NCBI GenBank assembly: GCA_041659445.1
Contig: JBAZYG010000002.1
Span: 30,001 to 62,000 of the forward strand
DNA: 32,000 bases
Direction: 5' to 3'
Origin: Candidatus Saccharimonadota bacterium
Lineage (GTDB): Archaea > Nanobdellota > Nanobdellia > Pacearchaeales > GW2011-AR1
Shown: piece by piece, positions 2,200 through 32,000 of the stretch
How the letters are laid out: every line of letters begins with the position of its first letter
Position numbering within the stretch: position 1 is the first letter of the stretch
Program-made: the position numbers and the translations under genes
The notes under the pieces: model-generated
What the model was told of the DNA's origin: nothing
The model's input: the letters and a program-made list of their open reading frames with translations, nothing else
Databases searched by the model: none

Positions 2200-2598
2200 T
2201 TATTCTAATTTTTTATCAATAGTTATTATATAAAAAATCCCATCACTATAAGCATTAACTTTTGCATCATTAAAATAAGAATAACTATATCCTCCTTTTT
2301 CAGTTAATTTTACCGTGACTGAATGCGTAATTTCATCTATAAAAACAACATTACTAAAATCAACAGAATTTTTTTCTGCTATTTCTTTTGCATCTTGCAT
2401 ATTAATTTTAATTATCATACCAAGACTAGAAGAATCTATTATCAATGCAATTTTTTTTGAATAAACTTGTTCTAAACTAATTGCACCTGCACCTTGTTTA
2501 ATTAAAAATAAAATTAAAATTATTAAAAAAACCAAATTTAATATTATAAAAATAACATTTTCAACTAGAATTTCACCATTCTTTTTTTTATCAAACAT
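2200..2598 (-). CDS. Pilin-like protein (class III signal peptide)
   Basis: N-terminus MFDKKKNG|EILVENVIFIILNLVFLIILILFLI. A TATA-like TTTATTAA sits at 2620-2627. Confidence 0.55.
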   Translation of the reverse strand: MFDKKKNGEILVENVIFIILNLVFLIILILFLIKQGAGAISLEQVYSKKIALIIDSSSLGMIIKINMQDAKEIAEKNSVDFSNVVFIDEITHSVTVKLTEKGGYSYSYFNDAKVNAYSDGIFYIITIDKKLE

Positions 2599-2641
2599 AT
2601 TTTTAAGAATGATTTTTAATTAATAAAACTTTTTATAAAAA

Positions 2642-3568
2642 TTAAGAAAGAGTTTCTATGTTTTTACATCCAATAGAATTTAATTCTTCTGAAGGAGATT
2701 CTATTAAAGATGGCGGAATCATTTCTCCACCCCATGTAGATTGAACAACCGGTGCTAAAAAGTATGCCCCAGTTCCTGTAGCTGCAGAAGCCCCACCAAC
2801 AATTGCAAATGAAGCCCAAAGACTGGCACTTCCTGTAAAAGGAGCTAAAATAATCCCTGTTGCAATAATTCCCCCTCCAATAGCACCTCCGACAGCATAA
2901 CCTAATTTACTAACATCACTAGTAACTCCAATTAAAACTTTATATTGTTTATCTAAGTTTATTTTACCGAAAGAAACAGAACTAATATTTTCCAAATTTA
3001 AAAAAGAATTATAATTATTTGTTCCATATAAATATTCTGAATAAGTAATTTCTTTTTCATTCATTTTTGTTTCTGCTATATATTTGTAAAAATTTTCTTT
3101 ATCAAATTCCCCAGATTCAAAACCAGAAATTCCCTTAACACTATCATCAAAAGCTACTTGCGCGCAAAATGAACAATACATTTCTGGAAATGCTTCTTTT
3201 CCAATGTAATTTAATTCACCCTCGCCAAACATCCACCAACAATCAGATAATTCTAATGCAAGGGCTTGATAAACTTCATCAGATGTTTTTACTTTGACTT
3301 TTTCTGGTTTTAAAAATTGTTCACAAGTTCCATCTTTTGTAATACAAACATATTGTGTTTCACATTTTAAAGGAACAGATTCTGTAGGAATTAATTTATT
3401 TGATCTTAAAACAATTGAATTATGACAAACTTCTGCTTCGCTTTCTTGTCCTAAATTTAATTTAATTAAAAAATAAAGCAAGATTATAAAACTAAGAATT
3501 AAAATAATCAACAAAACAATTTGTTGTGTTGTAAGTTCTCCACGTTTATTCTTTTTATTATTCAACAT
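2642..3568 (-). CDS. Large pilin-like protein with a Cys-rich ectodomain and a C-terminal Gly-rich double hydrophobic segment
   Basis: The track ORF starts at 3583. I prefer Met6 (ATG at 3568), giving MLNNKKNKRG|ELTTQQIVLLIILILSFIILLYFLI. The C-terminus reads GYAVGGAIGGGIIATGIILAPFTGSASLWASFAIVGGASAATGTGAYFLAPVV. Confidence 0.55.
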   Translation of the reverse strand: MLNNKKNKRGELTTQQIVLLIILILSFIILLYFLIKLNLGQESEAEVCHNSIVLRSNKLIPTESVPLKCETQYVCITKDGTCEQFLKPEKVKVKTSDEVYQALALELSDCWWMFGEGELNYIGKEAFPEMYCSFCAQVAFDDSVKGISGFESGEFDKENFYKYIAETKMNEKEITYSEYLYGTNNYNSFLNLENISSVSFGKINLDKQYKVLIGVTSDVSKLGYAVGGAIGGGIIATGIILAPFTGSASLWASFAIVGGASAATGTGAYFLAPVVQSTWGGEMIPPSLIESPSEELNSIGCKNIETLS

Positions 3569-4557: not shown

Positions 4558-6726
4558 TTATACTAAATTACCTAGGACAACAGCACTAAGAATTGTTAAA
4601 GCCAAAATTGAAATTAAAGCAACAATAAAATACATTAAAATTCCCTTGTTTAAATTCAAACCTGTTCTATTTATTTTTTCTAATTTATCTTCCCCAGAAT
4701 CAATTATAACTAAAGTTGAAGTTAAAATAAAAATTACTTGAATTAAATAAATTCCGACAGAGATTTGTAAGAAATATGGAGAAATCATTGCAGTCATATC
4801 AAAAATATCTAAAACTCCAGACAAACCACCTAAAGAACTTACAGATTCATTACTTAATTGGGCTAAATTTAATTTACTTAAAATAGAAGTAATCATCGAC
4901 GCTAAACCCACAACAATTCCTGAAAGTAATGGTGCTAAAAAAGTCATATTACTTTTCATATCCGAAACAATTTCAGCAAGCATATCATTAAGTCTTGCAG
5001 TAATCTTGTTAATATTTTTAACATATTCAGAAATACTCATTAAACTAACTGCAGCAATTTTTAATCCTTTTTTACTTGATTCAATTAAAATTTTCATAGA
5101 AATAGAAATTAAACTAGAAGGATAAACATTTATTGCACCTTGTCGTTTATCAAAAATTGATTTTTCAACACTCATTCCCATTTGTTGAATATTATAATTT
5201 ACTTTTCTAAAGAAGTCTCCTGTAACTAAATTTTTTGAAGATTCTGCAACTTTTCCAAATGCTAATTCAGTAGGTGTTCCATTTCCTAAACGATTACCTA
5301 ATTGAAATAAAGAATTGTTAAATTCTTTTTCAAGTTCTTTTGTTTTTCTTCTTTCAACAATAAGTTCTTTTGTTTTATTTTTATATGCGCTTGCGAAAAA
5401 AATTGCAATTCCTAAAGGAAAAAACATTCCCAAAATTAATGAGCCAATTCCAAATGGGCCTTTAACTCCCGAAGCTGTTGTTATAAATCCAAAAAAAGGA
5501 GAATCTCCTAAGAAACTAATTCCTAATTGAGAAAAAGTATAATCTTTTTGCAAACCAATTAATTCTGGAAAACCTGTAAATTGAAAAATTAAAGGAATTA
5601 ATCCTATAATTAAAAAAGGTAATGCTAAAAAGAAAGCATTAGTATAATGTTTTTTCTGTCGATATTTTGGATATAAACGATTTCTTTCAAGTAAATTAAC
5701 TTCCCCATAACCTCCTGGTCTTAAAACTAAAACTTTATCAGTCAAATAAAAAACTAAAAAAGGCACAATCAAATTAAAAATAATAAAAACATGAACATAA
5801 TTAAAAAATTCTCCAATCATTGCAGAAGCTAAAGGAAGTAAAGCCAAACCTAAAGTTGGTAAAACAACTCCAAGCATATACACATTTGTCAAAGGAGCTC
5901 TAACATCATGAGTAAACTTTAACATTTTGTCATAAACACCTTCTAAAATAACTTGCAAAGATTTTTCAAGAGCGTCAATTCTTCGAGAATTATCTGGTTC
6001 AAATAAACTACTTTCAATTAAATGAAATGCTTCAATAAATTCTGTAGAATAATCTCTCCATGATTCAAGATAATTATCTAAACTTTCTTTTATTGTAGAA
6101 AATTTTCCGATTTCAACATCATAAAATATTTTTTTGAAATCCAATGCTAAAGGATAATCTAAGTGCTCAGAAGCAAATGCAATTGCTTTTTCTAAATTTG
6201 GAGTATGTCTCATGTAAACAACGACGTAAAGCACTGCTGGAACCATTTGACTACTTGCTTTAAGCCTCCATTTTTTAGCAAGTCTCTCAGGATAATTATT
6301 TAAAAAAGTAAATAAAAAAATTGAAAAGGAAATAATTAAAACAAAAAACAAAACAGGAAAATACTGGAAACCTCCTTTAACCAAAGCCACTGCAACAGAA
6401 ATTATTAATCCTAAAAAGAAAACTAAAATAAAAGACATCACAGCCAAACCAACAGCTTGCCAAGATTCAATATTCAAATGTGCAGATGAAATTGCCTTAC
6501 CTAATCTTAATTCATCTTTTGCAGAAGGTTTTATTTTAATTGATTTTCCAAGATTATTTGCCCATTTTTCATAACCTTTTAATTCAACAGAAAGTTCGTC
6601 TTTAAATTTTAAATAAGATTGACTATAATTTCCTGCATTTGATAAATTTGTAGTATTTATTGAATTTTCAATTTTAGAACTATATTTTTTTAGAACATCT
6701 TTTACATCTAAATTATCCCTAGGCAT
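4558..6726 (-). CDS. Type IV pilus/archaellum platform membrane protein (FlaJ/TadC/PilC-like, two T2SS-F-type cytoplasmic domains)
   Basis: A 722-aa polytopic protein with two helical soluble segments separated by TM bundles. The first is RLKASSQMVPAVLYVVVYMRHTPNLEKAIAFASEHLDYPLALDF. The second is LFQLGNRLGNGTPTELAFGKVAESS...SLISISMKILIESSKKG. It lies in the same cluster as the secretion ATPase and prepilins. An SD-like GTGAT sits 6-10 nt upstream of the ATG. Confidence 0.7.
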   Translation of the reverse strand: MPRDNLDVKDVLKKYSSKIENSINTTNLSNAGNYSQSYLKFKDELSVELKGYEKWANNLGKSIKIKPSAKDELRLGKAISSAHLNIESWQAVGLAVMSFILVFFLGLIISVAVALVKGGFQYFPVLFFVLIISFSIFLFTFLNNYPERLAKKWRLKASSQMVPAVLYVVVYMRHTPNLEKAIAFASEHLDYPLALDFKKIFYDVEIGKFSTIKESLDNYLESWRDYSTEFIEAFHLIESSLFEPDNSRRIDALEKSLQVILEGVYDKMLKFTHDVRAPLTNVYMLGVVLPTLGLALLPLASAMIGEFFNYVHVFIIFNLIVPFLVFYLTDKVLVLRPGGYGEVNLLERNRLYPKYRQKKHYTNAFFLALPFLIIGLIPLIFQFTGFPELIGLQKDYTFSQLGISFLGDSPFFGFITTASGVKGPFGIGSLILGMFFPLGIAIFFASAYKNKTKELIVERRKTKELEKEFNNSLFQLGNRLGNGTPTELAFGKVAESSKNLVTGDFFRKVNYNIQQMGMSVEKSIFDKRQGAINVYPSSLISISMKILIESSKKGLKIAAVSLMSISEYVKNINKITARLNDMLAEIVSDMKSNMTFLAPLLSGIVVGLASMITSILSKLNLAQLSNESVSSLGGLSGVLDIFDMTAMISPYFLQISVGIYLIQVIFILTSTLVIIDSGEDKLEKINRTGLNLNKGILMYFIVALISILALTILSAVVLGNLV

Positions 6727-20721: not shown

Positions 20722-21933
20722 TTAATTCTCTGGTTCTAAAATAAATAAAGAATAATTTCCTTTTTTGACTTTTGATGCCATTTCTTTAACATCAGCTAAC
20801 TTTACTTTATTAATTTCTTTTTCAAAGTCATAAAAATCTTCTGCTTTAGTATGAATTTCACTTGCCAAAAGATTAACCATTTGAATTTGAGAATCTTCCA
20901 TTGAAATGTGATAATTTCCTACAAGCTGTTTTTTCACAGAATTCAATTCTTTTTCATCCAAACTTTCTGAAACTTTTTTAAATTCTTTTAAAATTAATTC
21001 TTCTACTTCTTTAGTATTTTCTTTATTTGTCCCAACATAAATCCAATTATATGAAAAATCTTTTGCAATTTCAGAACCAGATTTGACAGCATAAGCCAAA
21101 TTTCTTTTTTCTCTTATTTCAGAAAATAATCTTGAAGACATGCCTCCTGCAAGAATCGTATTTAAAATTAAAGCAACAATACTTTTCTTATCTGAAGCCA
21201 AGGGCGCGTGATATCCAAAAACTAAATTTGCTTGATCTATTCCTTTTCTTTTTTCAACTTTAATTTCATTTTTTAAAATAATTTTCTTTAATGAATCATT
21301 GCAAGTTTTTTCTTCAAAAGAAGAATTAAATAATTTTTCAATCTTATTTATATCTGCGTCTCCAACAATGCAAACAACTAAATTTTTTGAAGTATAAGTT
21401 TCTTGAAACCTTTGTAAAATTTTCCTTCTATCAATAGAATTCATAGTTTCATTGGTTCCGATTAAACTTATTTTTAATGCACCAGAATAAAGACATTTTT
21501 GTATTTCATTAAATATATGTCTTAAAGGATTATCGTGATATAATTTAATTTCTTCAAAAATAACTTTTCTTTCTTTTTCCATTTCTTTTTCATCAAATAA
21601 TGGATTTTTAACCATATCAATTAAAACATCCAATCCGATTTCATAGGATTCTTGAGGCATTTTGCACCAAAAACCAGTAATTTCTTCGCTAGTAAATCCA
21701 TTTAATTCTCCACCATTTCGTTCAATATCTTCTGCAATTTTTCTTGCAGTTCGGGTTTTGGTCCCTTTGTAAAGCATATGTTCGACAAAATGGGAAATAC
21801 CTTTTTGACTCAAATCTTCGCTATTTCCACCACTTTTTATTGCAACAATAATGCTCACAACAGGAACATCTCTTTTCTCAAATAAGAGCGTAATTCCGTT
21901 TTTTAAAATTTTTTTTGTAAAATTATTTTTCAT
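20722..21933 (-). CDS. M16 (pitrilysin) family zinc peptidase
   Basis: It has the inverted zinc motif HFVEH (GISHFVEHMLYKGT) and GGELNGFTSEEITGFW. The start is set at Met39 of the track ORF (ATG 21933) because consensus TTTATATA lies at -22..-29. The N-terminal 38 codons of the track ORF look non-coding. Confidence 0.8.
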   Translation of the reverse strand: MKNNFTKKILKNGITLLFEKRDVPVVSIIVAIKSGGNSEDLSQKGISHFVEHMLYKGTKTRTARKIAEDIERNGGELNGFTSEEITGFWCKMPQESYEIGLDVLIDMVKNPLFDEKEMEKERKVIFEEIKLYHDNPLRHIFNEIQKCLYSGALKISLIGTNETMNSIDRRKILQRFQETYTSKNLVVCIVGDADINKIEKLFNSSFEEKTCNDSLKKIILKNEIKVEKRKGIDQANLVFGYHAPLASDKKSIVALILNTILAGGMSSRLFSEIREKRNLAYAVKSGSEIAKDFSYNWIYVGTNKENTKEVEELILKEFKKVSESLDEKELNSVKKQLVGNYHISMEDSQIQMVNLLASEIHTKAEDFYDFEKEINKVKLADVKEMASKVKKGNYSLFILEPEN

Positions 21934-21954
21934 TTTTAAAACAGCATGAAAGAA

Positions 21955-21962
21955 TATATAAA
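21955..21962 (-). promoter_or_regulatory. TATA box TTTATATA for the M16 peptidase gene
   Basis: -22..-29 from ATG 21933. Confidence 0.45.
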
Positions 21963-21977
21963 TATAACTATTGATTT

Positions 21978-22208
21978 TTACCTCAAATAAAGCATTAAAA
22001 AAATTAAAAAACCAAGAACAATTAAGAATACAATCCACATTTCCCAATCAAAATATCTCTTTTTTTTAGCAGATAATAAATTTGCTTTTTTCTGATTTAA
22101 AAATTTCTTTTCAAAATCTAAATTTTTTTCATGAAGCAAAATCTTTTTTTGCTTTTTTGCTTCTAAAGAAATATCATCTTCAAATAAAGAATCATCAAAT
22201 TCTACCAT
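21978..22208 (-). CDS. Small tail-anchored membrane protein (76 aa), acidic/coiled N-terminus
   Basis: The C-terminal TM segment is WEMWIVFLIVLGFLIFLMLYL. TTTATAAT lies at -22..-29 from its ATG, which supports a real gene. Confidence 0.45.
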   Translation of the reverse strand: MVEFDDSLFEDDISLEAKKQKKILLHEKNLDFEKKFLNQKKANLLSAKKKRYFDWEMWIVFLIVLGFLIFLMLYLR

Positions 22209-22250: not shown

Positions 22251-23012
22251 TTATTTAGAGTTAAAGCAAATATATCTTTCATTTCCAAGTTCAAAGTCAT
22301 CAATTAAATTAAAATTGTCCTTAATAAATTGTAAAATCCAATTACGATTAACTTGAAATTTCTTTTTGCTAATCAAACTTTGAGTAGCAAAACTAACAAT
22401 AACTAAACTAGATGAATTAACAATTTCTTTTAGAATTTCTTTTGAATAATCTCTTTTTAACATTTCTAAAGAATCAAGAACTTTGAACAAAAAAATAATA
22501 TTATTCCCTTTTTCTGAAGAAATTATTTTTTTTATTTTTTCCAAATTGAACAAACTTTCATGATAACAGATTGCATTTAATTTATTTTTTTTAAAATATT
22601 CATTTTGAAGATTCACTAATTGTCCAATTGCTTCAACCCCAACATAATTAATTCTTTTTTTAAAAAAATAATAACTAAACCCGTTAACCCCACAACCCAA
22701 ATCAATAATATTTATTTTATTGTTAAAATTTTTTAATAATAAATCATAAAGTTTAGGATAAAAGTCAAACCTTTCTTTTGTAGAAATATGTTTTTTCAAA
22801 AACCATTCAGGATTTTTTTCTTTTAATATTAAAAGTTTTTGACTTGAAAAAACACTATAAACTTTTCTTAATAAATCTCGTGTTAATTTTATTTTTTCTT
22901 CAGTTAAATAAGAAGATTTATCAAATTTTGAAAAAGTCAGTTCTATATCTAAACGTGGAATTTGAGAAAATTCCTTTTTTTGAATAATCTTTTTGTAAAT
23001 CTCTTCATCCAT
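22251..23012 (-). CDS. Class I SAM-dependent methyltransferase resembling ArmA/Rmt (FmrO-family) 16S rRNA m7G1405 methyltransferases
   Basis: The SAM motif I is NIIDLGCGVNG (nt 22689-22703). It is preceded by KKHISTKERFDFYPKLYD (nt 22770-22790), which matches the H-x-S-T-x-ER motif of the ArmA/RmtB/Sgm family as I recall it. Length (253 aa) and the C-terminal block IIFLFKVLDSLE...LVIVSFATQSL are collinear with ArmA (257 aa). Confidence 0.55.
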   Translation of the reverse strand: MDEEIYKKIIQKKEFSQIPRLDIELTFSKFDKSSYLTEEKIKLTRDLLRKVYSVFSSQKLLILKEKNPEWFLKKHISTKERFDFYPKLYDLLLKNFNNKINIIDLGCGVNGFSYYFFKKRINYVGVEAIGQLVNLQNEYFKKNKLNAICYHESLFNLEKIKKIISSEKGNNIIFLFKVLDSLEMLKRDYSKEILKEIVNSSSLVIVSFATQSLISKKKFQVNRNWILQFIKDNFNLIDDFELGNERYICFNSK

Positions 23013-23097: not shown

Positions 23098-23985
23098 GTG
23101 CAAGCTGAAAAAGAATTTCATGCAGCAAAAGATTTGGAAAGCCAATTGATTGCTTTAAATAAAATGATTTCTCATGCTCCAAGTCATAAGGGAGCAGAAA
23201 ATTTAAGGCAACAGTTAACAACAAGACGAAAAAAATTAGAAACTCAAATTGAAAAAAAGAAAAAAGTAGGAAAATCAACTCAAACAGGAATAAAAAAATT
23301 AGACATGCAAGCAGTGATTGTTGGAAAAACTAATTCTGGAAAATCTTCTTTATTAAAAATTTTGACAAATGCTCAACCAAAAATTTCAGATAATAAATTT
23401 GCAACAAAACAACCATTAATTGGAATGATGCCCTATTTAGATACACAAATACAAATAATTGAAATTCCAGCAATTGAAAGTGAAGAATACGACAAAGGAG
23501 TTGTTTATACTGCAGACACTGTATTAATTTTAATAGAAAATTTTGAACAATTAAAAGAAATAGAGAATAAATTAAAAACACAAGGGAAAAAAATAATTGT
23601 TTTTAATAAAATTGATTTGCTTAGTTCACAAGAAAAAAGAAAAATCTCTGCGCAACTTCAATCAAAAAAATATAATTTTATTTTAGTTTCATGCATTCCT
23701 TATTATTCTGAAAATAATGTAGAAAATTTAAAAGATAAAATTTTCGAATCTTTTGATATATTAAGAGTTTTCACAAAAGAACCAGGAAAAGAAAAATCAA
23801 AAAAACCAATGATTATGAAACCACATTCAACAGTTTCAGATGTTGCTGAAAAAATTCTTAAAGGATTAAGTAAAAAAATCAAAGAAACAAGAATCTGGGG
23901 ACCAAGTTCTAAATTTGGGGGGCAAATAGTTGGATTAAATCATAAATTAAAAGACATGGATGTTGTTGAATTTAAGACAAAATGA
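23098..23985 (+). CDS. DRG/Obg-like GTPase with C-terminal TGS domain, divergent switch II
   Basis: G1 is VGKTNSGKSS and G4 is FNKID. The TGS-like C-terminus is ILRVFTKEPG...PMIMKPHSTVSDVAEKI...RIWGPSSKFGGQIVGLNHKLKDMDVVEF. The start is GTG at 23098, with AAATTAAAATT about 30 nt upstream. G3 reads IEIPAI instead of DxPG. Confidence 0.7.
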   Translation: MQAEKEFHAAKDLESQLIALNKMISHAPSHKGAENLRQQLTTRRKKLETQIEKKKKVGKSTQTGIKKLDMQAVIVGKTNSGKSSLLKILTNAQPKISDNKFATKQPLIGMMPYLDTQIQIIEIPAIESEEYDKGVVYTADTVLILIENFEQLKEIENKLKTQGKKIIVFNKIDLLSSQEKRKISAQLQSKKYNFILVSCIPYYSENNVENLKDKIFESFDILRVFTKEPGKEKSKKPMIMKPHSTVSDVAEKILKGLSKKIKETRIWGPSSKFGGQIVGLNHKLKDMDVVEFKTK

Positions 23986-24372
23986 TTATTTTTGATTTTT
24001 TCTTTTTTGAAATTCTTCATAACTAGAATCCAAAAATAAATCAACCATGCTGGAATTTGTATGCTTTCCAGATCCCGGAGAATTACCTTTTAATCTTTTA
24101 ACAATTCTTTTAACAAATTTTGGTTCAAAAAAAGTTGTTCTTGATACAGCCATAAGAACCCTTTCTTCAAGATGGGGCGCTTTTGGACTTTGAAAATCTT
24201 TTTTTAATGAAATTCTAACTGGAAATTTATCTAAAATTAAGTAATTTTCCCATCCATTTTTATCTACAGGAGTGTAAATGCTATTCATTTCATTTAAGGC
24301 TATTTTAAGAGCATCGTATTCTCTCATATCGCATTTTAAGTCATACTGTCTAAATCGAATTGTTTTTTCCAT
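23986..24372 (-). CDS. Hypothetical protein (128 aa)
   Basis: A clean ORF with a TATA-like TTTTTAAA at -22..-29 (24394-24401). I recognise no motif. Confidence 0.45.
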   Translation of the reverse strand: MEKTIRFRQYDLKCDMREYDALKIALNEMNSIYTPVDKNGWENYLILDKFPVRISLKKDFQSPKAPHLEERVLMAVSRTTFFEPKFVKRIVKRLKGNSPGSGKHTNSSMVDLFLDSSYEEFQKRKNQK

Positions 24373-24437
24373 GTTTTTTCAAACATTTTACTATTTAAAA
24401 ATCTTTCTATTGTTGTAATTATAAAAAGATAACAAAA

Positions 24438-25175
24438 TTATTCATAATTCCAATTTTCTAAATTAATATTCTTAAAATCATAAAATTTTTTATTTAAAAG
24501 ATTATATTGTCCTAAAAAAGGATTTTCAGTTTTTAAATTAAAAGGGTTTTTTTGAAATAAATAAACTTGTGCTTTAGGAGGAATTCCTGGATAACAAAGT
24601 AAAATCCATTTTTCTCTTCCCTGAATATATTCATTTCTAAAATTAACTAGATTATTCAAAACAAGATAAATCATCAAATGCTCTTCTAAAAAGAAATTCA
24701 ATTGATTTTTATCTAACTTTCTATTATAAAATTTAATATCTTCTTGAATATATTTTTGAAAAGTTTTATCTTTTTTATAGAAATCTTTAATTTTTTCAAA
24801 ATAAACATTAAAATCTCCTTTAATTTCTAGATATAGATTACCCCAAGTTTCAAAATGAAATGCGTGCTGTATTTGAAGAGATTTTCTATTTTTATGAATT
24901 GCGTTTTTTAATCCATTTTTATGATTAACCATTGCATTCATAAATTTCTCTTTTAAAAAAGTTGCTTTATCTTCAGAATTTAAATATAAAAAATCACAAT
25001 AAACCAAGTTTAATCCTATTTTAGGTTCTCCTGCTTTTTTATCTCCAAAAAAACTAATCCATTCTAAACAATTTTTAACAGATTGCTTAGTAGTAATATT
25101 AGACATTGAAATAGGAAAGAATAAAATCCCCCAATCTTTCAAAGGTTTTATATCAAAAAATTCATTTTGTTTCAT
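24438..25175 (-). CDS. Candidate tRNA-dependent cyclodipeptide synthase (CDPS)-like protein
   Basis: The start is set at Met23 of the track ORF (ATG 25175), 1 nt after the tyrS stop. Motif order and spacing resemble CDPSs: FFPISMSN...LEW (Ser codon 25107-25109), a basic helix KATFLKEKF...KNAIHKNRK, LNFFLEEHLM, and ILLCYPG. Details are in the findings. Confidence 0.4.
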   Translation of the reverse strand: MKQNEFFDIKPLKDWGILFFPISMSNITTKQSVKNCLEWISFFGDKKAGEPKIGLNLVYCDFLYLNSEDKATFLKEKFMNAMVNHKNGLKNAIHKNRKSLQIQHAFHFETWGNLYLEIKGDFNVYFEKIKDFYKKDKTFQKYIQEDIKFYNRKLDKNQLNFFLEEHLMIYLVLNNLVNFRNEYIQGREKWILLCYPGIPPKAQVYLFQKNPFNLKTENPFLGQYNLLNKKFYDFKNINLENWNYE

Positions 25176-25176
25176 T

Positions 25177-26286
25177 TCATCTAGTAATGCTATATTTTTT
25201 AACTTCTTCATACAATTGTTTTGCTTTTTTATTTTTTTCAAAATATTCTCTTATTGGCTGAATCATTTCGTTTAAATAAAAAGAAACTGTTTTTTTCAAG
25301 TCCAAGGGATGTAATTTCCCTTCAATATAAACTTTTTCAATTTCAGAATAATTCAATTTTAAATTTCCTCCAAACTTTTCAGGTCTTGAAATATCTATTT
25401 TTTCATATCTTTTAAAAATCAAATATTTTAAATAATCAAATAAAGGATTTCCTTCAATTATCTTTTCTGGACAATAGGCTTTGTTAATCTTTCTTTCAAT
25501 ATCTTCCTTGGTATCATGCATATATATGCAAGTTTCAGGCTTACTTTTACTCATTTTACTTGCTAAAAGTATTTCATCTTTATCTTTTCCAGGCTGAATT
25601 CCTTGAAGACCTAAAATCATATGATGAGAAACAACAATAGGCTTTTTCCAATTTAATTTATCTGCAATTTCTCTTGCAAGTACATTTGCTCTTCTTTGAT
25701 CCAAACCTAATTGACAAATATCCACATTCAATTCAAAAATATCTGAAACCTGCATGCTAGGATAAAATAATTGTGCTGTAGATTGTAATTCCCCTTCTTT
25801 TCTTCCCATTATAGTTGTTGCCCTAATACTCCTATTCAAGGTTGTTTCTTTTGCAACTCTTAACACCCTGTCCCAATATTTTAAATTATTCATTTTATCA
25901 GATGCCCAGATAATTTCAACCTTAGACGTATCAACCCCACAGGCTTTCCACATTTCAATGAAGTATTCTCCTGCTCTTTGAATTCTTTTTAAATCTCCCC
26001 CAAGTTTGTTATTGATAAAAGCAAAATAATCTGCAAGATATAATTTAAATTTAACACCTGCTTTTAACATAAATTTAATGTTTTCTGCTCTAAGTAATCC
26101 AAAAGGGATATGTGCTAATCCAGAAGGTTCAAAACCATCATAAGCAATAATATCTTTTCCTGATTTAAGCATTTCTTTTAATTCTTCTTCACCAATTAAT
26201 TCCCCACCATCTGCAACACTTCTGATTAATTCAAATCTTTCTTCTACATTTAAATTTTCTTTCTTGTTTTCTTTTTTAGCAACCAT
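25177..26286 (-). CDS. tyrS: Tyrosyl-tRNA synthetase, long archaeal type
   Basis: The motifs are GFEPSGLAHIPFG, ADYFAFINNKLGGDL, YPSMQVSDI, KMSKSKPE, KAYCP...EGNP, RPEKFGGNL, KLHPLDLK and a C-terminal ...ITR. It is collinear with Pyrococcus-type TyrRS as I recall it. Confidence 0.9.
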   Translation of the reverse strand: MVAKKENKKENLNVEERFELIRSVADGGELIGEEELKEMLKSGKDIIAYDGFEPSGLAHIPFGLLRAENIKFMLKAGVKFKLYLADYFAFINNKLGGDLKRIQRAGEYFIEMWKACGVDTSKVEIIWASDKMNNLKYWDRVLRVAKETTLNRSIRATTIMGRKEGELQSTAQLFYPSMQVSDIFELNVDICQLGLDQRRANVLAREIADKLNWKKPIVVSHHMILGLQGIQPGKDKDEILLASKMSKSKPETCIYMHDTKEDIERKINKAYCPEKIIEGNPLFDYLKYLIFKRYEKIDISRPEKFGGNLKLNYSEIEKVYIEGKLHPLDLKKTVSFYLNEMIQPIREYFEKNKKAKQLYEEVKKYSITR

Positions 26287-26336: not shown

Positions 26337-27290
26337 TTATTTAACAAAAGAGTCAATTGTTCTCTCCAAAATATAATTCTTATATGTTATAAAATCCTTA
26401 AAATTAACCCAGTCTCTTTCTAGAATTAAACCTTTCACTTTTGAATGTAATGAACTAGGAAGTAATTCTTTTAACCTTTTTTCACCATTAGATATCTCTA
26501 AGTTCAAAGACTCATTAAATTTATCCTTAATATTTGAATAAAAATTTGAATCTCCTGCTTCTTTATTTATTCCTTCAATTTCTTCTTCACTTAAATTCTT
26601 TAAACTAAAAAAATGCGAAAATCTCATACTCACAATTCCTTTCAGGACTCTATTTAAAAAATTTTGATTCACAATATTAACATAATCTTCTCCCCAATTA
26701 CAAAAATCGCTTCTCAATAAAGAATAACCAACTAAAAAATCACTATTTACTTTATCTTTTTTAAAAAAACCATTTTCATCTATAAATTCTACTTTGAAAT
26801 CAGGAAATATCTTGCTTTTATTAATTAAAAATTTTCCTTCATCTAATCCAGGCCAATAAATAGGCCTTGCTATAGTAATATCTGATAACAAAAGCGGTTC
26901 ATGAATATAAGAAGTATGTGAAATTTGAACGTAATCTGATTTAATACCATCTAAAATTCCTAAAATTTTTTTTAAGGCATAATTTTTTGTTTCTCTATCT
27001 AAAATTGGATAAATTAAACCAATAGAATTGTATAATGCAGAAGGAATTGCTTCATGAGGACCTCCACAAGTTGCTTCTACAAAAAACCTATGATTTTCTC
27101 CTGTTTTTGAGTCAGTATAAGATTTATTCAGAGCTTCATCATAAATATTAAAAAGTTCATCTAAAGCTTTTTCTGGATTTTCCCAGAGAAGTTGAGAAAA
27201 TTTTTCAGAATAATCATCTGCAATAAAATAATAATTACTAAAAGTATTTTTTATATTTTCAAATAAATTTTCCTGATTGTTTTTATTCAT
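26337..27290 (-). CDS. Hypothetical protein (317 aa)
   Basis: A long clean ORF with no motif I can name. Confidence 0.5.
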   Translation of the reverse strand: MNKNNQENLFENIKNTFSNYYFIADDYSEKFSQLLWENPEKALDELFNIYDEALNKSYTDSKTGENHRFFVEATCGGPHEAIPSALYNSIGLIYPILDRETKNYALKKILGILDGIKSDYVQISHTSYIHEPLLLSDITIARPIYWPGLDEGKFLINKSKIFPDFKVEFIDENGFFKKDKVNSDFLVGYSLLRSDFCNWGEDYVNIVNQNFLNRVLKGIVSMRFSHFFSLKNLSEEEIEGINKEAGDSNFYSNIKDKFNESLNLEISNGEKRLKELLPSSLHSKVKGLILERDWVNFKDFITYKNYILERTIDSFVK

Positions 27291-27384: not shown

Positions 27385-28581
27385 ATGTTATTAGAAATTC
27401 TTTTAGCATTATTTTTAGGAATACTTGCAGGAATTTTAACAGGTTTAATTCCAGGAATACACAATAATCTTATTGGAGCATTTTTAGTATCTTTATATGC
27501 AACAATTTTAGGACACATTCCCCCAATTTATTTAATAATTTTTATAACTGCTATGGCAATTTCAAATACTTTTTTAGAGTTTATTCCGTCAATATTTTTA
27601 GGATGTCCAGATACAGATACTGAATTAAGTATTTTGCCTGGGCATAGGTTATTAAAAAAGGGTTTGGGATATCAAGCAATAACTTTTACTGCATATGGTG
27701 GAATTATTGCAATATTCCTAACTTTAATTTTAGCATGGCCTTCAATTTTTATTATGAAAAATATATTTGATGAATTAAAATTAGTAACGCCTTATCTTTT
27801 AATTGCAGTTTTAATTTTTTTAATTTATCTTGAAGATAAAAAAATAAAAGCAATATTTGTAATTTTAATTACAGGTTTCTTAGGAATTATTATTTTAAAT
27901 TTTGAAATGAAAGAACCACTTTTACCCTTGTTAACAGGCTTATTTGGTAGTTCAATGTTAATTGCAAGTATAAAAGATAAATTTCAAATTCCCAAACAAA
28001 CTTTAGAGTGTGAAAAAATAAAATTCAAAGACATAAAAAGACCTTTGCTAGGTTCTTTGGTTTCTTCTCCGATGTGTGGTTTTTTGCCAGGATTAGGAAA
28101 CGGACAAGCAGCAATAATCGGAAGCACTATTTCAAAAGACGATGAAAAAAGTTTTTTGATTTTACTTGGAGCAACAAATGTTTTTGTTATGGCTTTTTCT
28201 TTTCTTGCACTTTATGCAATTTCAAAATCTAGAACAGGTGCAGCAGTAGCTATAAATGAAATAATTGGAGCACTTTCATCAAAAATGATTTTCTTAATTT
28301 TAATAGTGATTTTAATTTCAGGAATTATTTCTTTCATTTTAACAAAAAAAATTGGAAAATTCTTTTCAAAAAATATTTCAAAAATAAATTACTCAAAATT
28401 ATCAATAATAATTTTATGCTTGCTTGTAGTTATTATCACTGCAATTTCAGGATGGAAAGGTTTGATTGTTTTAATTATTTCAACAATAACAGGAATTTAT
28501 TGTATATCTCTAGGAGTTAAAAGAACAAATATGATGGGTTGCTTATTAATTCCTACAATTTTATTTTATTTCGGGTTATGA
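27385..28581 (+). CDS. Polytopic membrane protein, TctA/DUF112-like (putative tricarboxylate-type transporter subunit)
   Basis: It has about 10 or more TM segments. The G-x-x-x-G-x-I-PG-I/L-G type motifs recur twice (GILAGILTGLIPGIHNN and CGFLPGLGNGQAAIIG), as in TctA-family proteins. A TATA-like GTTTAAAAAA lies about 22-30 nt upstream. Confidence 0.5.
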   Translation: MLLEILLALFLGILAGILTGLIPGIHNNLIGAFLVSLYATILGHIPPIYLIIFITAMAISNTFLEFIPSIFLGCPDTDTELSILPGHRLLKKGLGYQAITFTAYGGIIAIFLTLILAWPSIFIMKNIFDELKLVTPYLLIAVLIFLIYLEDKKIKAIFVILITGFLGIIILNFEMKEPLLPLLTGLFGSSMLIASIKDKFQIPKQTLECEKIKFKDIKRPLLGSLVSSPMCGFLPGLGNGQAAIIGSTISKDDEKSFLILLGATNVFVMAFSFLALYAISKSRTGAAVAINEIIGALSSKMIFLILIVILISGIISFILTKKIGKFFSKNISKINYSKLSIIILCLLVVIITAISGWKGLIVLIISTITGIYCISLGVKRTNMMGCLLIPTILFYFGL

Positions 28582-28585
28582 AAAA

Positions 28586-31500
28586 TCAAAACCATCTTTC
28601 AATATTTTCTTGCTTTTCGTTTTCTTTTCCAAAAATACTGTCAATATATCTTTTTATCAAATCTAAATTTTGTTGTAAATAAACAGAAAGATGATATTTA
28701 TTTGCTAAATCTAAAGCAGTATCTAAATATTTTTTAATTCCACCTTTATTAATTGTAAAAATTAATTTTCCACCACAGATTGGACAAACTCCAGATAAAG
28801 GAGGCCTTCTTACAATTTCATTACACTTAACACATCTAAAATTTTGAGTAGAAAAACTCCTCAAATTACCCCTCATATCCCTTATAAAATGCCTTTCAAT
28901 AATTAATCTTGCAGTATCACTAGTATCAACAGCTCTTATTTTTTCAACTAAAGCCATTTGATGATTAACTTTTTCTTGCATCAAACCAAGCAATTTATAA
29001 TTTGAACATAAAACTCCGAGATTAAAATTTTCAGTATTATGGGTAAATCCTAATTTCAAAAACGGATCTTTACCATCTTTTAATGCATTTTTAACACAAT
29101 AAACATCTACTTCAGATGAATGTTTTTTCTTCTCAGCAAGATGATACAATGAAAGAGGATATTCATCGACCATCTCTAAATCTAGAATTTGATCATCAAC
29201 TTCCCCTGCATCTATTTTAGCATTTAACACAAGAGGCGCATCTTGAGTTCCTCCTCTATGACTAGGTAAAAATTTTCTTGAAAAGTTAATTAAAACATCT
29301 CCCAATAACATCAATGATGCTTCATCACCATCGCAATCTCTTCTAATTGCAGCATGCATATATGGACTTGCCATCAAACCCAAAGTATCTGAAAAACCAA
29401 TAAATCTGCAAATAACTCCAGCACAATTATGTGGAGCCATACAAACACCAAGTTGTCCAATTAAATCTTCTTTTGTTTTCACATTATAATAAGATTTCAA
29501 CCCATAAACATTCACTAAAAGATCGTCCATAAAATTACAAATATTTTTAAAAACTTCTTCTCCTCTTTCATCTGGATTTTCAGGAGAACTTGGAATCAAC
29601 ACATCATGGGGCATTAATTCTAAAATTTGATTTTCATTAACAAGAGGATTTCCATAAACATCTTCGTCATAACCAAGTTCTTTTAATTTTTCAACAGAAA
29701 CTTTAATTTCCTTTGGCTTAAAGGCTATTAAAGGAAGTTCTGTTGCATCAAGACGAATTGTTCCATCTTTATTAACTTGAAGATTATATTTTGCTCTTAA
29801 AATTCCTTTAACTAAATTTTCTGGAATTTTTGAGTCAGAACTTAATCCTCTAACGCCTTTTATTAAAACAGGCATTTCTTCTTTGTTTAGTTTCAAAATC
29901 TCTTTAGCAGAATTTAAATAAGAACAAATATCTAATTCTTTGAAAATAGTCGGCTTCCCTTCTTTAACAGAATTCTTAATATTTTTTTCAAAAGAAGATT
30001 CTTTAATCTCATAAAAATAATATTTTTGTTTAGTCATTTTTTTACAATTTTCACAATGAGGATAAATTGATTCTTTTCCACAATCTTCACAATAAAAATA
30101 AGGAAAAATTCCTTTGACTTTCCCAACTTTACAAGCTTCATTAACACTTCGTAATCTTCCGCCTTCACTTCCAACAGGAAATAAAACATTCGGGCTACCT
30201 GTTAATTTTCTCACTTTTGCTTTTTCTGGACGACCCATTCTTGCTCCAATAAATTCACCTGATTTATCTTTAATTTCAAATTTTGAAAAAGAATTAATAA
30301 TTTCTAAAACAGGTTTTTCTAAATCAAATTTTTCTAAATCAAAATATTCTTTAAAATAATTTTTATTTAAAACTTCATTTAAATCAAAACCTAAATTCAA
30401 AAAAAGAGATTTTGCATTTACAACATCAATAATAACATTTTCTATAAAAACATCGTGAGAAATTCCCAAAAGTTCCAAAGCCCTTTTTCCCAATGAAAAT
30501 TTTTCTCTGTCTAATTTAGTATAAGGTAAAATTAATTTATCTAAAAAAACAGAATTTCTTAACCAATCTATTAAATTTAAAAATTCTTCTTTGCTTATTT
30601 CGTTCCAATAAAAAATAAATTTTGGATACAAAGGAATTTTTTCTTTTTCACTTATTTCTATTGCTTTTTCAAAAGAAACATTAAAATAATCTAAATTAAC
30701 ATAATCTTTTTTATTTTTTTCTTTTAATTCTAAAAACCACCACTCCTCTACAAAACCAGGTTTGATTAATTGCGCGTTTCTATTAATAACATCACTAAAA
30801 GGAAAAAGTATATCCCCTAAATAAATTATTTCTTCTATTTCTGAATAAAGTTTTTTTGCTTCATCTTTGCTATTTAATTTTTTAACACTACCATTACGAA
30901 GTTTTACAATTGGCCCATCAATAGAATCGTTCACAGTAATTGCACAACCTTTTGTTGGTTTTTCAACTTTTAATTGAGTTCCAATTGCAATAAAGCCGTC
31001 GGTAACAGCCATTGTAGCCGGAGAAATAGATGAAGCACTAAACCCAGAGTTTCGTCCCCGGCCATATCTAAATCTAAATCCTCCTGATCTTGAAGGATGG
31101 CTAAATACAGGTCTTCCTGCAACTAAATCTTTTATATACGTCGGAGAAGCATCAATTTTCCCTTTATCTCTTTTTTCATGAATTTTAATATATTCTTCTA
31201 AAAAATCAAATCCAGTAGACTTTACACCGTTTTTTTTTGCTTTATTTAAAAGTCTAAACCCCTTTGTAGCTTTTTGAGCCAAACCTTCTCCCAAAATTAA
31301 ACAAAAACCACTCCTTAAAAAATTAGTACTAACTCTTTCTAAATTTTTATAATTTGGAACTTCAATTTTTTCTGAGGGTTCACCGTCGACTTGAAAAGGA
31401 AGATGTCTTGCTAAAAATAATGTTTCTTCTTCAGTAGGCATATATTGTAAATTTGCAACTCTATCATGAAAATGTTCTAATTCTGTATAAACTCTTTTTA

Positions 31501-32000
31501 TTTCTTCTTCAGTTGGATCATATTTTGCAAAACCATATTTTTCTCTTAAAAAATCAATTAATATTAAAACCATACAAGAAGAAGTTGTCCCAGCACTTCT
31601 TATTGGACCTGAAAAAAAAGCCTTGAGATATTCTTTATTATCTTTTGTTTTTCCAATTTTAATTCCAGTATAACCCTCGATTGGACTTGAAACAACACCT
31701 AAAGTGATGTATGCAAATCCTATTCTAATTCCTGCATCAATGGATTCAATTAAATTTTCAAATTTACAAAATTTTTGTTCTGAAACTTCTTCAGCAATTT
31801 TAAAAATAATTGTCGGGTCTAGTTTACCATATTGCTCTTCTAATTCCAAAATCCTTTTAGAGATTTCTGAATCTTTCATTTGAGGATAAATTGTTGAAAT
31901 TAAACCTACAACTTTTTCAGCCATGCTCATTGCCAAAGGTATTTCTACTTCATTTACAGGATCTATTCCTTTACTTCTAGCAATACTTGAAATCCCATAA
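28586..32000 (-). CDS. DNA polymerase II (PolD) large subunit DP2; the 5' end lies beyond the right edge
   Basis: This is a very long ORF with Zn-finger clusters CEDCGKESIYPHCENC and CVKCNEIVRRPPLSGVCPICGG. It has the conserved blocks GARMGRPEKA, MAPHNCAG and RRDCDGDE. The frame stays open upstream of the track start (a TTG at 31936): ...YGISSIARSKGIDPVNEVEIPLAMSMAEKVVGLIS, which matches the conserved DP2 N-terminus. The gene is therefore truncated by the window. No intein-sized insertion is apparent. Confidence 0.9.
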   Translation of the reverse strand, partial: YGISSIARSKGIDPVNEVEIPLAMSMAEKVVGLISTIYPQMKDSEISKRILELEEQYGKLDPTIIFKIAEEVSEQKFCKFENLIESIDAGIRIGFAYITLGVVSSPIEGYTGIKIGKTKDNKEYLKAFFSGPIRSAGTTSSCMVLILIDFLREKYGFAKYDPTEEEIKRVYTELEHFHDRVANLQYMPTEEETLFLARHLPFQVDGEPSEKIEVPNYKNLERVSTNFLRSGFCLILGEGLAQKATKGFRLLNKAKKNGVKSTGFDFLEEYIKIHEKRDKGKIDASPTYIKDLVAGRPVFSHPSRSGGFRFRYGRGRNSGFSASSISPATMAVTDGFIAIGTQLKVEKPTKGCAITVNDSIDGPIVKLRNGSVKKLNSKDEAKKLYSEIEEIIYLGDILFPFSDVINRNAQLIKPGFVEEWWFLELKEKNKKDYVNLDYFNVSFEKAIEISEKEKIPLYPKFIFYWNEISKEEFLNLIDWLRNSVFLDKLILPYTKLDREKFSLGKRALELLGISHDVFIENVIIDVVNAKSLFLNLGFDLNEVLNKNYFKEYFDLEKFDLEKPVLEIINSFSKFEIKDKSGEFIGARMGRPEKAKVRKLTGSPNVLFPVGSEGGRLRSVNEACKVGKVKGIFPYFYCEDCGKESIYPHCENCKKMTKQKYYFYEIKESSFEKNIKNSVKEGKPTIFKELDICSYLNSAKEILKLNKEEMPVLIKGVRGLSSDSKIPENLVKGILRAKYNLQVNKDGTIRLDATELPLIAFKPKEIKVSVEKLKELGYDEDVYGNPLVNENQILELMPHDVLIPSSPENPDERGEEVFKNICNFMDDLLVNVYGLKSYYNVKTKEDLIGQLGVCMAPHNCAGVICRFIGFSDTLGLMASPYMHAAIRRDCDGDEASLMLLGDVLINFSRKFLPSHRGGTQDAPLVLNAKIDAGEVDDQILDLEMVDEYPLSLYHLAEKKKHSSEVDVYCVKNALKDGKDPFLKLGFTHNTENFNLGVLCSNYKLLGLMQEKVNHQMALVEKIRAVDTSDTARLIIERHFIRDMRGNLRSFSTQNFRCVKCNEIVRRPPLSGVCPICGGKLIFTINKGGIKKYLDTALDLANKYHLSVYLQQNLDLIKRYIDSIFGKENEKQENIERWF
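30314..30343. repeat. Perfect 15-bp tandem duplication inside polD
   Basis: tttttctaaatcaaa occurs twice in tandem, encoding FDLEK-FDLEK in frame. Confidence 0.9.

Follow-up and report, generated by a model that had tools for sequence, protein, structure and literature searches.

The window, by which we mean the whole stretch of 32,000 nucleotides (nt) analysed here (about 26% G+C), carries on its minus strand a tyrosyl-tRNA synthetase gene followed at once by an open reading frame (ORF) that an initial annotation had likened to the tRNA-dependent cyclodipeptide synthases (CDPSs), which draw on charged tRNAs for the amino acids of small cyclic peptides. The follow-up confirmed that this ORF is a real gene and supports its being a very distant relative of the CDPSs. 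The synthetase gene, tyrS (25177-26286, minus strand), encodes a 369-amino-acid (aa) tyrosyl-tRNA synthetase (TyrRS) of the long archaeal/eukaryote-like type, with matches to NF006330 (tyrosine--tRNA ligase, 3e-111) and PF00579 (1e-40). The CDPS-like ORF (24438-25175, minus strand) encodes 245 aa from the ATG at 25175, and it is characterised below through its homologues, an AlphaFold2 (AF2) model, Foldseek and hhalign. At the junction of the two genes (25173-25179, minus strand), the TGA of tyrS (25179-25177) is followed by a single base (25176) and then by the ATG of the ORF (25175-25173); the initial annotation had placed this ATG right after the tyrS stop, and direct reading of the sequence bears it out. 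Since stop and start lie one base apart, the two genes most likely share a transcript; it is from the spacing alone that we infer co-transcription and translational coupling. The pair forms part of a head-to-tail series of four genes on the minus strand: an orphan ORF of 317 aa (26337-27290), tyrS, the CDPS-like ORF and an orphan ORF of 128 aa (23986-24372).

Two alternative in-frame starts of the CDPS-like ORF, an ATG at 25211 (257 aa) and a TTG at 25241 (267 aa), both lie within tyrS. The NCBI gene model uses the first of them (P0001, 257 aa, 'hypothetical protein WC812_03750', 100% identical); it comes from a Candidatus Pacearchaeota MAG (metagenome-assembled genome), which makes the source of the window a DPANN archaeon. 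The homologues start 3-10 residues ahead of a conserved NEFFDI motif, and the ATG at 25175 is therefore the most likely start; residues are numbered from it throughout, the numbers of the initial annotation being higher by 22 (S23 = S45, E165 = E187, Y195-P196 = Y217-P218). Downstream, an AT-rich spacer of 65 nt (24373-24437, minus strand), with T-runs and TTTAAATA at 24392-24399, parts the tyrS pair from the next co-directional gene. TATA-like boxes had been proposed for both tyrS and this next gene. In the window TTTAWATA has 31 occurrences, where chance would give 24.7 +/- 5.3, so that such boxes do not stand out from random matches; one exact match (24392-24399) does lie 20-27 nt upstream of the ATG of the next gene. 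Because the DNA is so AT-rich, the TATA-box argument carries no weight. Neither a tRNA gene nor a further copy of tyrS or of the CDPS-like ORF occurs elsewhere in the window.

The CDPS-like ORF has no match in Pfam (PF16715 included, E<=1), NCBIfam, PADLOC or PHROGs, nor among the sequences of the Protein Data Bank (PDB). It had been assigned to no named family at the outset, and the library scans agree, the homologues matching no other known family either. These homologues number 342 (clusters at 90% identity), are about 250 aa long and are annotated, every one of them, as 'hypothetical'; an exhaustive profile search yielded 230 representatives at 50% identity, 160 of them at E<=1e-10. The 80 genomic loci collected (numbered here with the prefix L, and proteins with the prefix P) fall into two groups, the DPANN archaea and the bacteria of the candidate phyla radiation (CPR/Patescibacteria). 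Judged by record title, 18 of the 80 are DPANN (Pace-, Woese-, Nano-, Iain- and Micrarchaeota) and most of the remainder CPR (Paceibacteria, Nomura-, Wolfe-, Morani- and Adlerbacteria, SR1); a few titles of metagenome-assembled genomes (MAGs) give other phyla, and such taxonomy labels may be unreliable. In a rough neighbour-joining (NJ) tree of the family, the archaeal sequences of L044, L061 and L068 (Nanoarchaeota) are nested in a bacterial clade, while the bacterial L007-L010 are sister to the archaeal clade of the window. This nesting of archaeal among bacterial sequences indicates that the gene has probably moved repeatedly between DPANN and CPR. Some CPR MAGs hold two to three paralogues: L046, L051 and L067 come from one MAG (DASZOX01), L030 and L073 lie on one contig, and L075 has two copies 1.8 kb apart (2473-3201 and 5001-5738). 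In one member, P0251, about 280 additional residues of a different kind, weakly matching a winged helix, precede the CDPS-like domain.

The fold provided the first line of evidence for kinship with the CDPSs. The AF2 model of the ORF, built with 42 homologues in the input, has a pLDDT of 91.9 and a pTM of 0.90, and when it was searched against the PDB with Foldseek, ranks 1-24 all went to CDPSs, with both subfamilies represented (E 2.7e-6 to 2.7e-3, template modelling (TM) score 0.43-0.53), namely AlbC, Fdum-CDPS, the S. haemolyticus and P. gingivalis CDPSs, Rv2275, BtCDPS, ParcuCDPS, YvmC, BcmA and Nbra-CDPS. The best single match is AlbC (E=2.7e-6), and the tryptophanyl- and tyrosyl-tRNA synthetases (TrpRS, TyrRS) come only after the CDPSs, at about 1e-2. 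The resemblance to CDPSs that had been noticed in the motifs reappears in the structural comparison. Strands and helices of the ORF model correspond one to one with those of an AF2 model of AlbC. The correspondence includes a long basic helix (residues 71-95; 24891-24965, minus strand) with conserved K/R75, K/R77, H85, K/R86 and K95, which at 25 residues is as long as its AlbC counterpart (82-106) and which hhalign aligns with greater confidence than any other stretch; a Lys/Arg-rich helix had indeed been noticed initially where CDPSs have theirs. In AlbC this basic helix is alpha4, the proposed tRNA binder. The hallmarks of class I aminoacyl-tRNA synthetases (aaRSs) are missing from the protein, a single domain of 245 aa that lacks HIGH, KMSKS and an anticodon-binding domain, with PISMS at the HIGH position and CYPGIPPK in the KMSKS region.

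The second line of evidence came from profile comparison. The family alignment of 69 diverse representatives (Neff 6.1, the effective number of sequences), when aligned by hhalign with 112 canonical CDPSs, all of the NYH subfamily, matched them along 200 colinear columns with a probability of 75.7% and P=2.4e-5; with the DSSP strings of both models included, the probability was 93.9%, and P ranged over the runs from 1e-5 to 2.4e-5. The controls fell well below the native score of 42.3, reaching 14.9 for the reversed profile, at most 18.4 in 30 column shuffles and at most 23.6 in 20 block shuffles, and when the family was compared with TyrRSs in place of CDPSs the signal was absent (P=0.59). 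Of the kinds of profile search suggested initially, hhalign found the CDPSs at P=1e-5 to 2.4e-5, and HMMER and PF16715 gave no match.

The residues on which CDPS chemistry depends offer a third line. In the CDPSs, S37 and Y202 are strictly conserved and Y178 and E182 well conserved, and the subfamilies differ in N40/H203 (NYH) versus X40/P203 (XYP) (PMC5935735). In the ORF, the candidate acyl-accepting serine is S23 (codon 25107-25109, minus strand), with which the first Rossmann strand ends; it is 96% conserved among the 69 representatives, to which the conservation figures for single residues refer, and hhalign pairs it with AlbC S37, the strand spanning residues 16-23 here and 31-36 in AlbC. 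The initial annotation had singled out the same codon, as S45. Helix 156-173 contains F161-F-L-E164-E165 (24681-24695, minus strand), with candidate equivalents of Y178, here a Phe, and of E182; F161, E164 and E165 are conserved to 97%, 96% and 99%. At the end of the fourth strand, Y195-P196 in the motif CYPG (24588-24593, minus strand) corresponds to CDPS Y202-P203; Y195 is 99%, P196 80% and G197 83% conserved, hhalign pairs Y195/P196 with AlbC Y202/H203, and strand 190-195 ends there as in the AlbC model. The four motif strings named initially are all present in the ORF, the AlbC strings given for comparison agree with PDB entry 3oqv_A, and the spacings are as given (Ser to Glu, 142 residues versus 145 in AlbC; Ser to Tyr, 172 versus 165); the match of ILLCYPG to the CDPSs turns out to be the Tyr-Pro signature of the XYP subfamily. 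None of the outcomes that the initial annotation had named as refuting its reading was observed.

We compared three registers for the catalytic helix: that of hhalign (d=8), one that matches up the helix starts (d=13) and that of the initial annotation (d=17). A gapless profile score gave +5.9 for the register pairing F161/Y178 and E165/E182, and all the others scored -5.2 or less. The loop after the catalytic helix has 16 residues in the ORF model and 4 in the AlbC model, which is the insertion that the E165/E182 register requires, and the helix ends also fit d=17. In its gapped alignment, hhalign instead skips NFFLE, thereby avoiding a long gap, and pairs Y170/Y178 and N174/E182; Y170 and N174 are not conserved in the family. 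The equation of LNFFLEEHLM with the CDPS helix, with its 99% conserved Glu, is favoured by the gapless score and is at odds with the hhalign register. We regard E165 as the probable equivalent of CDPS E182.

Compared with the CDPSs at large, the family shares a Rossmann fold without ATP motifs, a Ser ending strand 1, a length of about 245 aa, a probable counterpart of the buried Glu on the helix before strand 4 and an aromatic residue at the presumed Y178 position. With the NYH enzymes (AlbC, 3OQV/4Q24; Rv2275, 2X9Q; YvmC, 3OQH) it has in common the colinear profile of some 200 columns, the order of elements and the basic helix of 25 residues; it differs from them in that the N40/H203 pair is missing, Pro taking position 203 (His occurs there in only 2 of the 69 members) and R/K or a loop residue lying near position 40. 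With the XYP enzymes it shares the Tyr-Pro at the end of strand 4: the XYP signature is present in that Pro follows the cyclisation-type Tyr, the equivalent of position 40 being ambiguous (R/K26 or T28, depending on the alignment). A candidate parallel is that the conserved Y59 and D/N61 after strand 2 are reminiscent of Y55/D58 of ParcuCDPS, in which D58 forms a dyad with the Ser.

From these observations we propose that the protein is a Rossmann domain of the class-Ic aaRS kind, which has done away with the ATP motifs and would act on aminoacyl-tRNA instead. Our favoured interpretation, which we hold to be probable though well short of settled, is that it belongs to the CDPS superfamily as a deeply diverged enzyme, using aminoacyl-tRNAs and making a cyclodipeptide. 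By analogy with the known enzymes, the aminoacyl group of a first aminoacyl-tRNA would pass to Ser23 to form an acyl-enzyme; Glu165, together with the ring of Phe161, would hold and deprotonate the bound amino group; this amino group would attack a second aminoacyl-tRNA to give a dipeptidyl-enzyme; and Tyr195, followed as in the XYP enzymes by a Pro (Pro196), would relay a proton so that the product is released by cyclisation. The Phe in place of Tyr178 need not be an obstacle: the Y167F mutant of ParcuCDPS, altered at the Y178 equivalent, still makes product, and the same mutants of three other XYP CDPSs are active (PMC7613923), so that Phe at this position is no bar to activity.

The neighbourhood of tyrS raises the question of a link between the family and the aaRSs. 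A tyrS gene lies immediately upstream, on the same strand, in four other loci, with a 5-nt gap in L004, an 11-nt overlap in L005, a gap of about 41 nt in L011 and a 3-nt gap in L050. Three of these (L004, L005, L011) belong to the archaeal clade of the window, which has two further members without tyrS, and L050 to a distant bacterial clade. Conservation of the linkage, which the initial annotation had wanted checked, accordingly extends to the window's clade and L050 and is not family-wide. Across the family, 10 of 72 loci have an aaRS gene as their direct upstream neighbour in the same orientation (TyrRS 4, IleRS 5, GlyRS 1); the five with IleRS fall in two clades, one more locus has LeuRS immediately downstream, and in all the aaRS genes adjoin the family at five to six separate places on the rough NJ tree. 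The genomic share of aaRS genes, about 2-3%, is an estimate from typical gene counts and not a measured value. The earlier suggestion of a Tyr-containing product finds no family-wide support, because tyrS linkage is confined to the clade of the window and one other locus: most members are not beside tyrS, and others stand beside IleRS, GlyRS or LeuRS. The IleRS-like genes upstream in CPR encode about 1170-1210 aa (L014:1580-4987, L020:1490-4990, L025:198-3836, L057:1481-4984, L074:1505-4984), and four of the five contain a histidine-phosphatase domain (PF00300) in addition to tRNA-synt_1, Anticodon_1 and DUF5915.

The TyrRS of the window has HIPF at the HIGH site and keeps KMSKS. We considered whether HIPF marks a degenerate tyrS paralogue and rejected the idea, as the closest solved TyrRSs, the apicomplexan ones (1e-97), carry HIAQ at that site; the M. 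jannaschii type follows at 4e-49. The syntenic TyrRSs (L004:4012-4977; L005:3956-4972; L011:3853-4938) differ in their HIGH variants, with HLGH in L004 and HLMY in L005, and these two are only 32-34% identical to the TyrRS of the window, whereas the CDPS-like proteins of the same loci are 63-64% identical to ours and the flanking GTPase, peptidase and methyltransferase 46-55%. These identities suggest that one tyrS was exchanged for another at the same site while the gene arrangement was retained.

Several observations weigh against the protein being a cyclodipeptide-forming CDPS: (i) The relationship is remote. Identity to the CDPS structures is 10-17%, with a TM score of about 0.5 and a root-mean-square deviation of about 5 Å, as the caveat of low similarity in the initial annotation had anticipated. 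As a yardstick, the AF2 model of AlbC matches NYH structures at 1e-14 to 1e-20 (TM about 0.8), XYP structures at 1e-8 to 1e-5 (TM 0.55-0.70) and a TyrRS at 1.6e-4; on these models the family appears at least as distant from NYH and XYP as these are from each other, and clearly nearer to the CDPSs than to the synthetases. (ii) Most sequence searches fail to connect it with the CDPSs. Against PDB chains, HMMER found no CDPS either with the single sequence (phmmer) or with the family profile (hmmsearch), 10 distant members have no match to PF16715 at E<=0.1, and a narrow family alignment (Neff 2.5-2.9) brought hhalign no further than E 0.05-0.4, short of significance, which was reached only once the exhaustive representative search had added divergent members. 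(iii) The residues agree incompletely. The family naturally has Phe where CDPSs have Tyr178, in the favoured register and in 97% of members, and P21 where they have Gly35 (a departure rightly flagged at the start); the gapped hhalign register does not pair E165 with E182; the near-invariant Y59, Y64 and H85 are absent from CDPSs; and the loop between the catalytic helix and strand 4 is about 10-12 residues longer. (iv) The family is highly uniform, with a mean column identity of 53% across two domains of life, which suits a single fixed reaction more than the range of specificities that CDPSs of secondary metabolism display. It also differs from the closest known CDPSs in occurring in DPANN archaea besides CPR bacteria and outside tailoring-enzyme clusters. 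(v) With common descent taken into account, aaRS genes are modestly enriched among the neighbours, to a degree that is suggestive and not significant. On its fold, profile and catalytic residues we place the protein in the CDPS superfamily, though beyond what present models recognise as the family itself.

The main rival explanation, which we judge rather improbable though deserving of attention, keeps both the fold and the Ser acyl-enzyme acting on aminoacyl-tRNA, but has the aminoacyl or dipeptidyl group either handed on elsewhere, be it to a protein, a lipid, a metabolite or a precursor of the cell envelope, or released as a linear product, in a conserved quasi-housekeeping role in CPR and DPANN symbionts. 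The uniformity of the family across archaea and bacteria with reduced genomes and the extra invariant Y59, Y64 and H85 would suit such a role. So would its gene neighbours, since the CDPS-like domain of P0277 and P0286 continues at its C-terminus into a SET domain (PF00856; protein lysine methyltransferase-type), a SET gene lies immediately downstream in the CPR loci L024 (5731-6213), L056 (5746-6246) and L062 (5754-6224) and 1.2 kb away in L054 (4184-4657), and no usual CDPS tailoring gene (P450, cyclodipeptide oxidase) was found among the immediate flanking genes scanned with Pfam. Against it, Tyr195, which sits at the site of the cyclisation residue Y202 (PMC5935735), is 99% conserved and is followed by Pro as in the XYP enzymes, and the data name no acceptor. 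Most loci have no conserved partner gene. Among the recurrent neighbours, an FAD-linked oxidase (FAD_binding_4 and FAD-oxidase_C) lies immediately downstream in L013, L016 and L021 (L021:5743-7485), from Paceibacteria/Nomurabacteria, and a class II fructose-bisphosphate aldolase upstream in L013, L017 and L021.

A second explanation, to which we give little credence, takes the protein for an aaRS-like or HUP-class Rossmann protein without tRNA-dependent catalysis, such as a partner or regulator of an aaRS, a tRNA-binding factor or a nucleotide-binding enzyme. The weaker Foldseek matches to TrpRS, TyrRS and universal stress proteins (E 0.01-0.1) speak for it, as does the proximity of the gene to aaRS genes in several lineages; like the catalytic domains of the class Ic aaRSs, the family has a Rossmann fold, and here its gene lies beside that of TyrRS. 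However, the CDPS matches precede those to aaRSs and universal stress proteins by about four orders of magnitude, the family profile carries no TyrRS signal, neither HIGH/KMSKS nor another nucleotide-binding motif is present, and the near-invariant residues sit at CDPS catalytic positions. There is a precedent of sorts in ORF1, an unannotated ORF beside TrpRS-A in CPR/DPANN for which a class-I-aaRS-like nature was proposed (Mukai et al. 2017, PMC5370408). Our family resembles it as an unannotated ORF of the same organisms, and ORF1 consistently adjoins a class Ic aaRS gene. We considered whether the two are the same and rejected this on the described properties of ORF1, by which the two are set apart: ORF1 has no Trp, no Rossmann fold, and HIGH/KMSKS-like motifs (PMC5370408), whereas the CDPS-like family is the reverse, with W111 and W190 conserved. 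That the likeness to CDPSs is a chance or convergent one between generic Rossmann folds, or that the ORF is no gene, is very improbable indeed: identities of only 10-17% and the failure of HMMER leave room for it, but the 342 conserved homologues establish a real gene, the profile controls stay far under the native score, the 24 top structural matches are all of one family and the catalytic positions coincide.

The two orphan ORFs flanking the tyrS pair (23986-24372 and 26337-27290, both minus strand) have no match in Pfam, NCBIfam, PADLOC or PHROGs and are missing from those loci of relatives that are otherwise syntenic; they look lineage-specific. Further out, the window contains a weakly matching FmrO-like methyltransferase (22251-23012, minus strand), a DRG/Obg-type GTPase with a TGS domain (23098-23985, plus strand), a probable M16-type peptidase recognised by eye (20722-22047, minus strand) and a multi-pass membrane protein (27385-28581, plus strand), each of which is syntenic in at least one of L004, L005, L011 and L050. 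A long ORF (28586-31936) resembles, by eye, the large subunit of archaeal DNA polymerase D.

The genomes of CPR and DPANN organisms are rich in proteins of unknown function. The CDPSs were still divided into two subfamilies, NYH and XYP, in a review of January 2026 (PMC12945691), and our full-text searches, within the literature collection used, found no paper tying CDPSs to CPR, Patescibacteria or DPANN families. On the reading we favour, that of a divergent CDPS, a widespread 'hypothetical protein' of these genomes would acquire a testable function. The natural Phe at the Tyr178 position, together with the extra invariant residues, would amount to a natural experiment on the CDPS mechanism. 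A wider proposal, which we offer only tentatively and as something that may well not hold, is that the family is a third and ancient branch of the CDPS superfamily, undetected by current models, shared horizontally between DPANN and CPR, which performs one conserved aminoacyl-tRNA-dependent reaction serving episymbiosis and has been recruited repeatedly beside the aaRS genes that would supply its substrate. The reaction could then yield a diketopiperazine signal or antagonist, or aminoacylate a target that is subsequently modified by a partner SET enzyme. If true, this third branch, which only structure reveals and which counts no fewer than 230 clusters at 50% identity among the smallest cells known, would enlarge the set of enzymes that divert aminoacyl-tRNA from translation, and would hint at small-molecule chemistry, in the form of signalling or antagonism, in organisms assumed to be almost without secondary metabolism.

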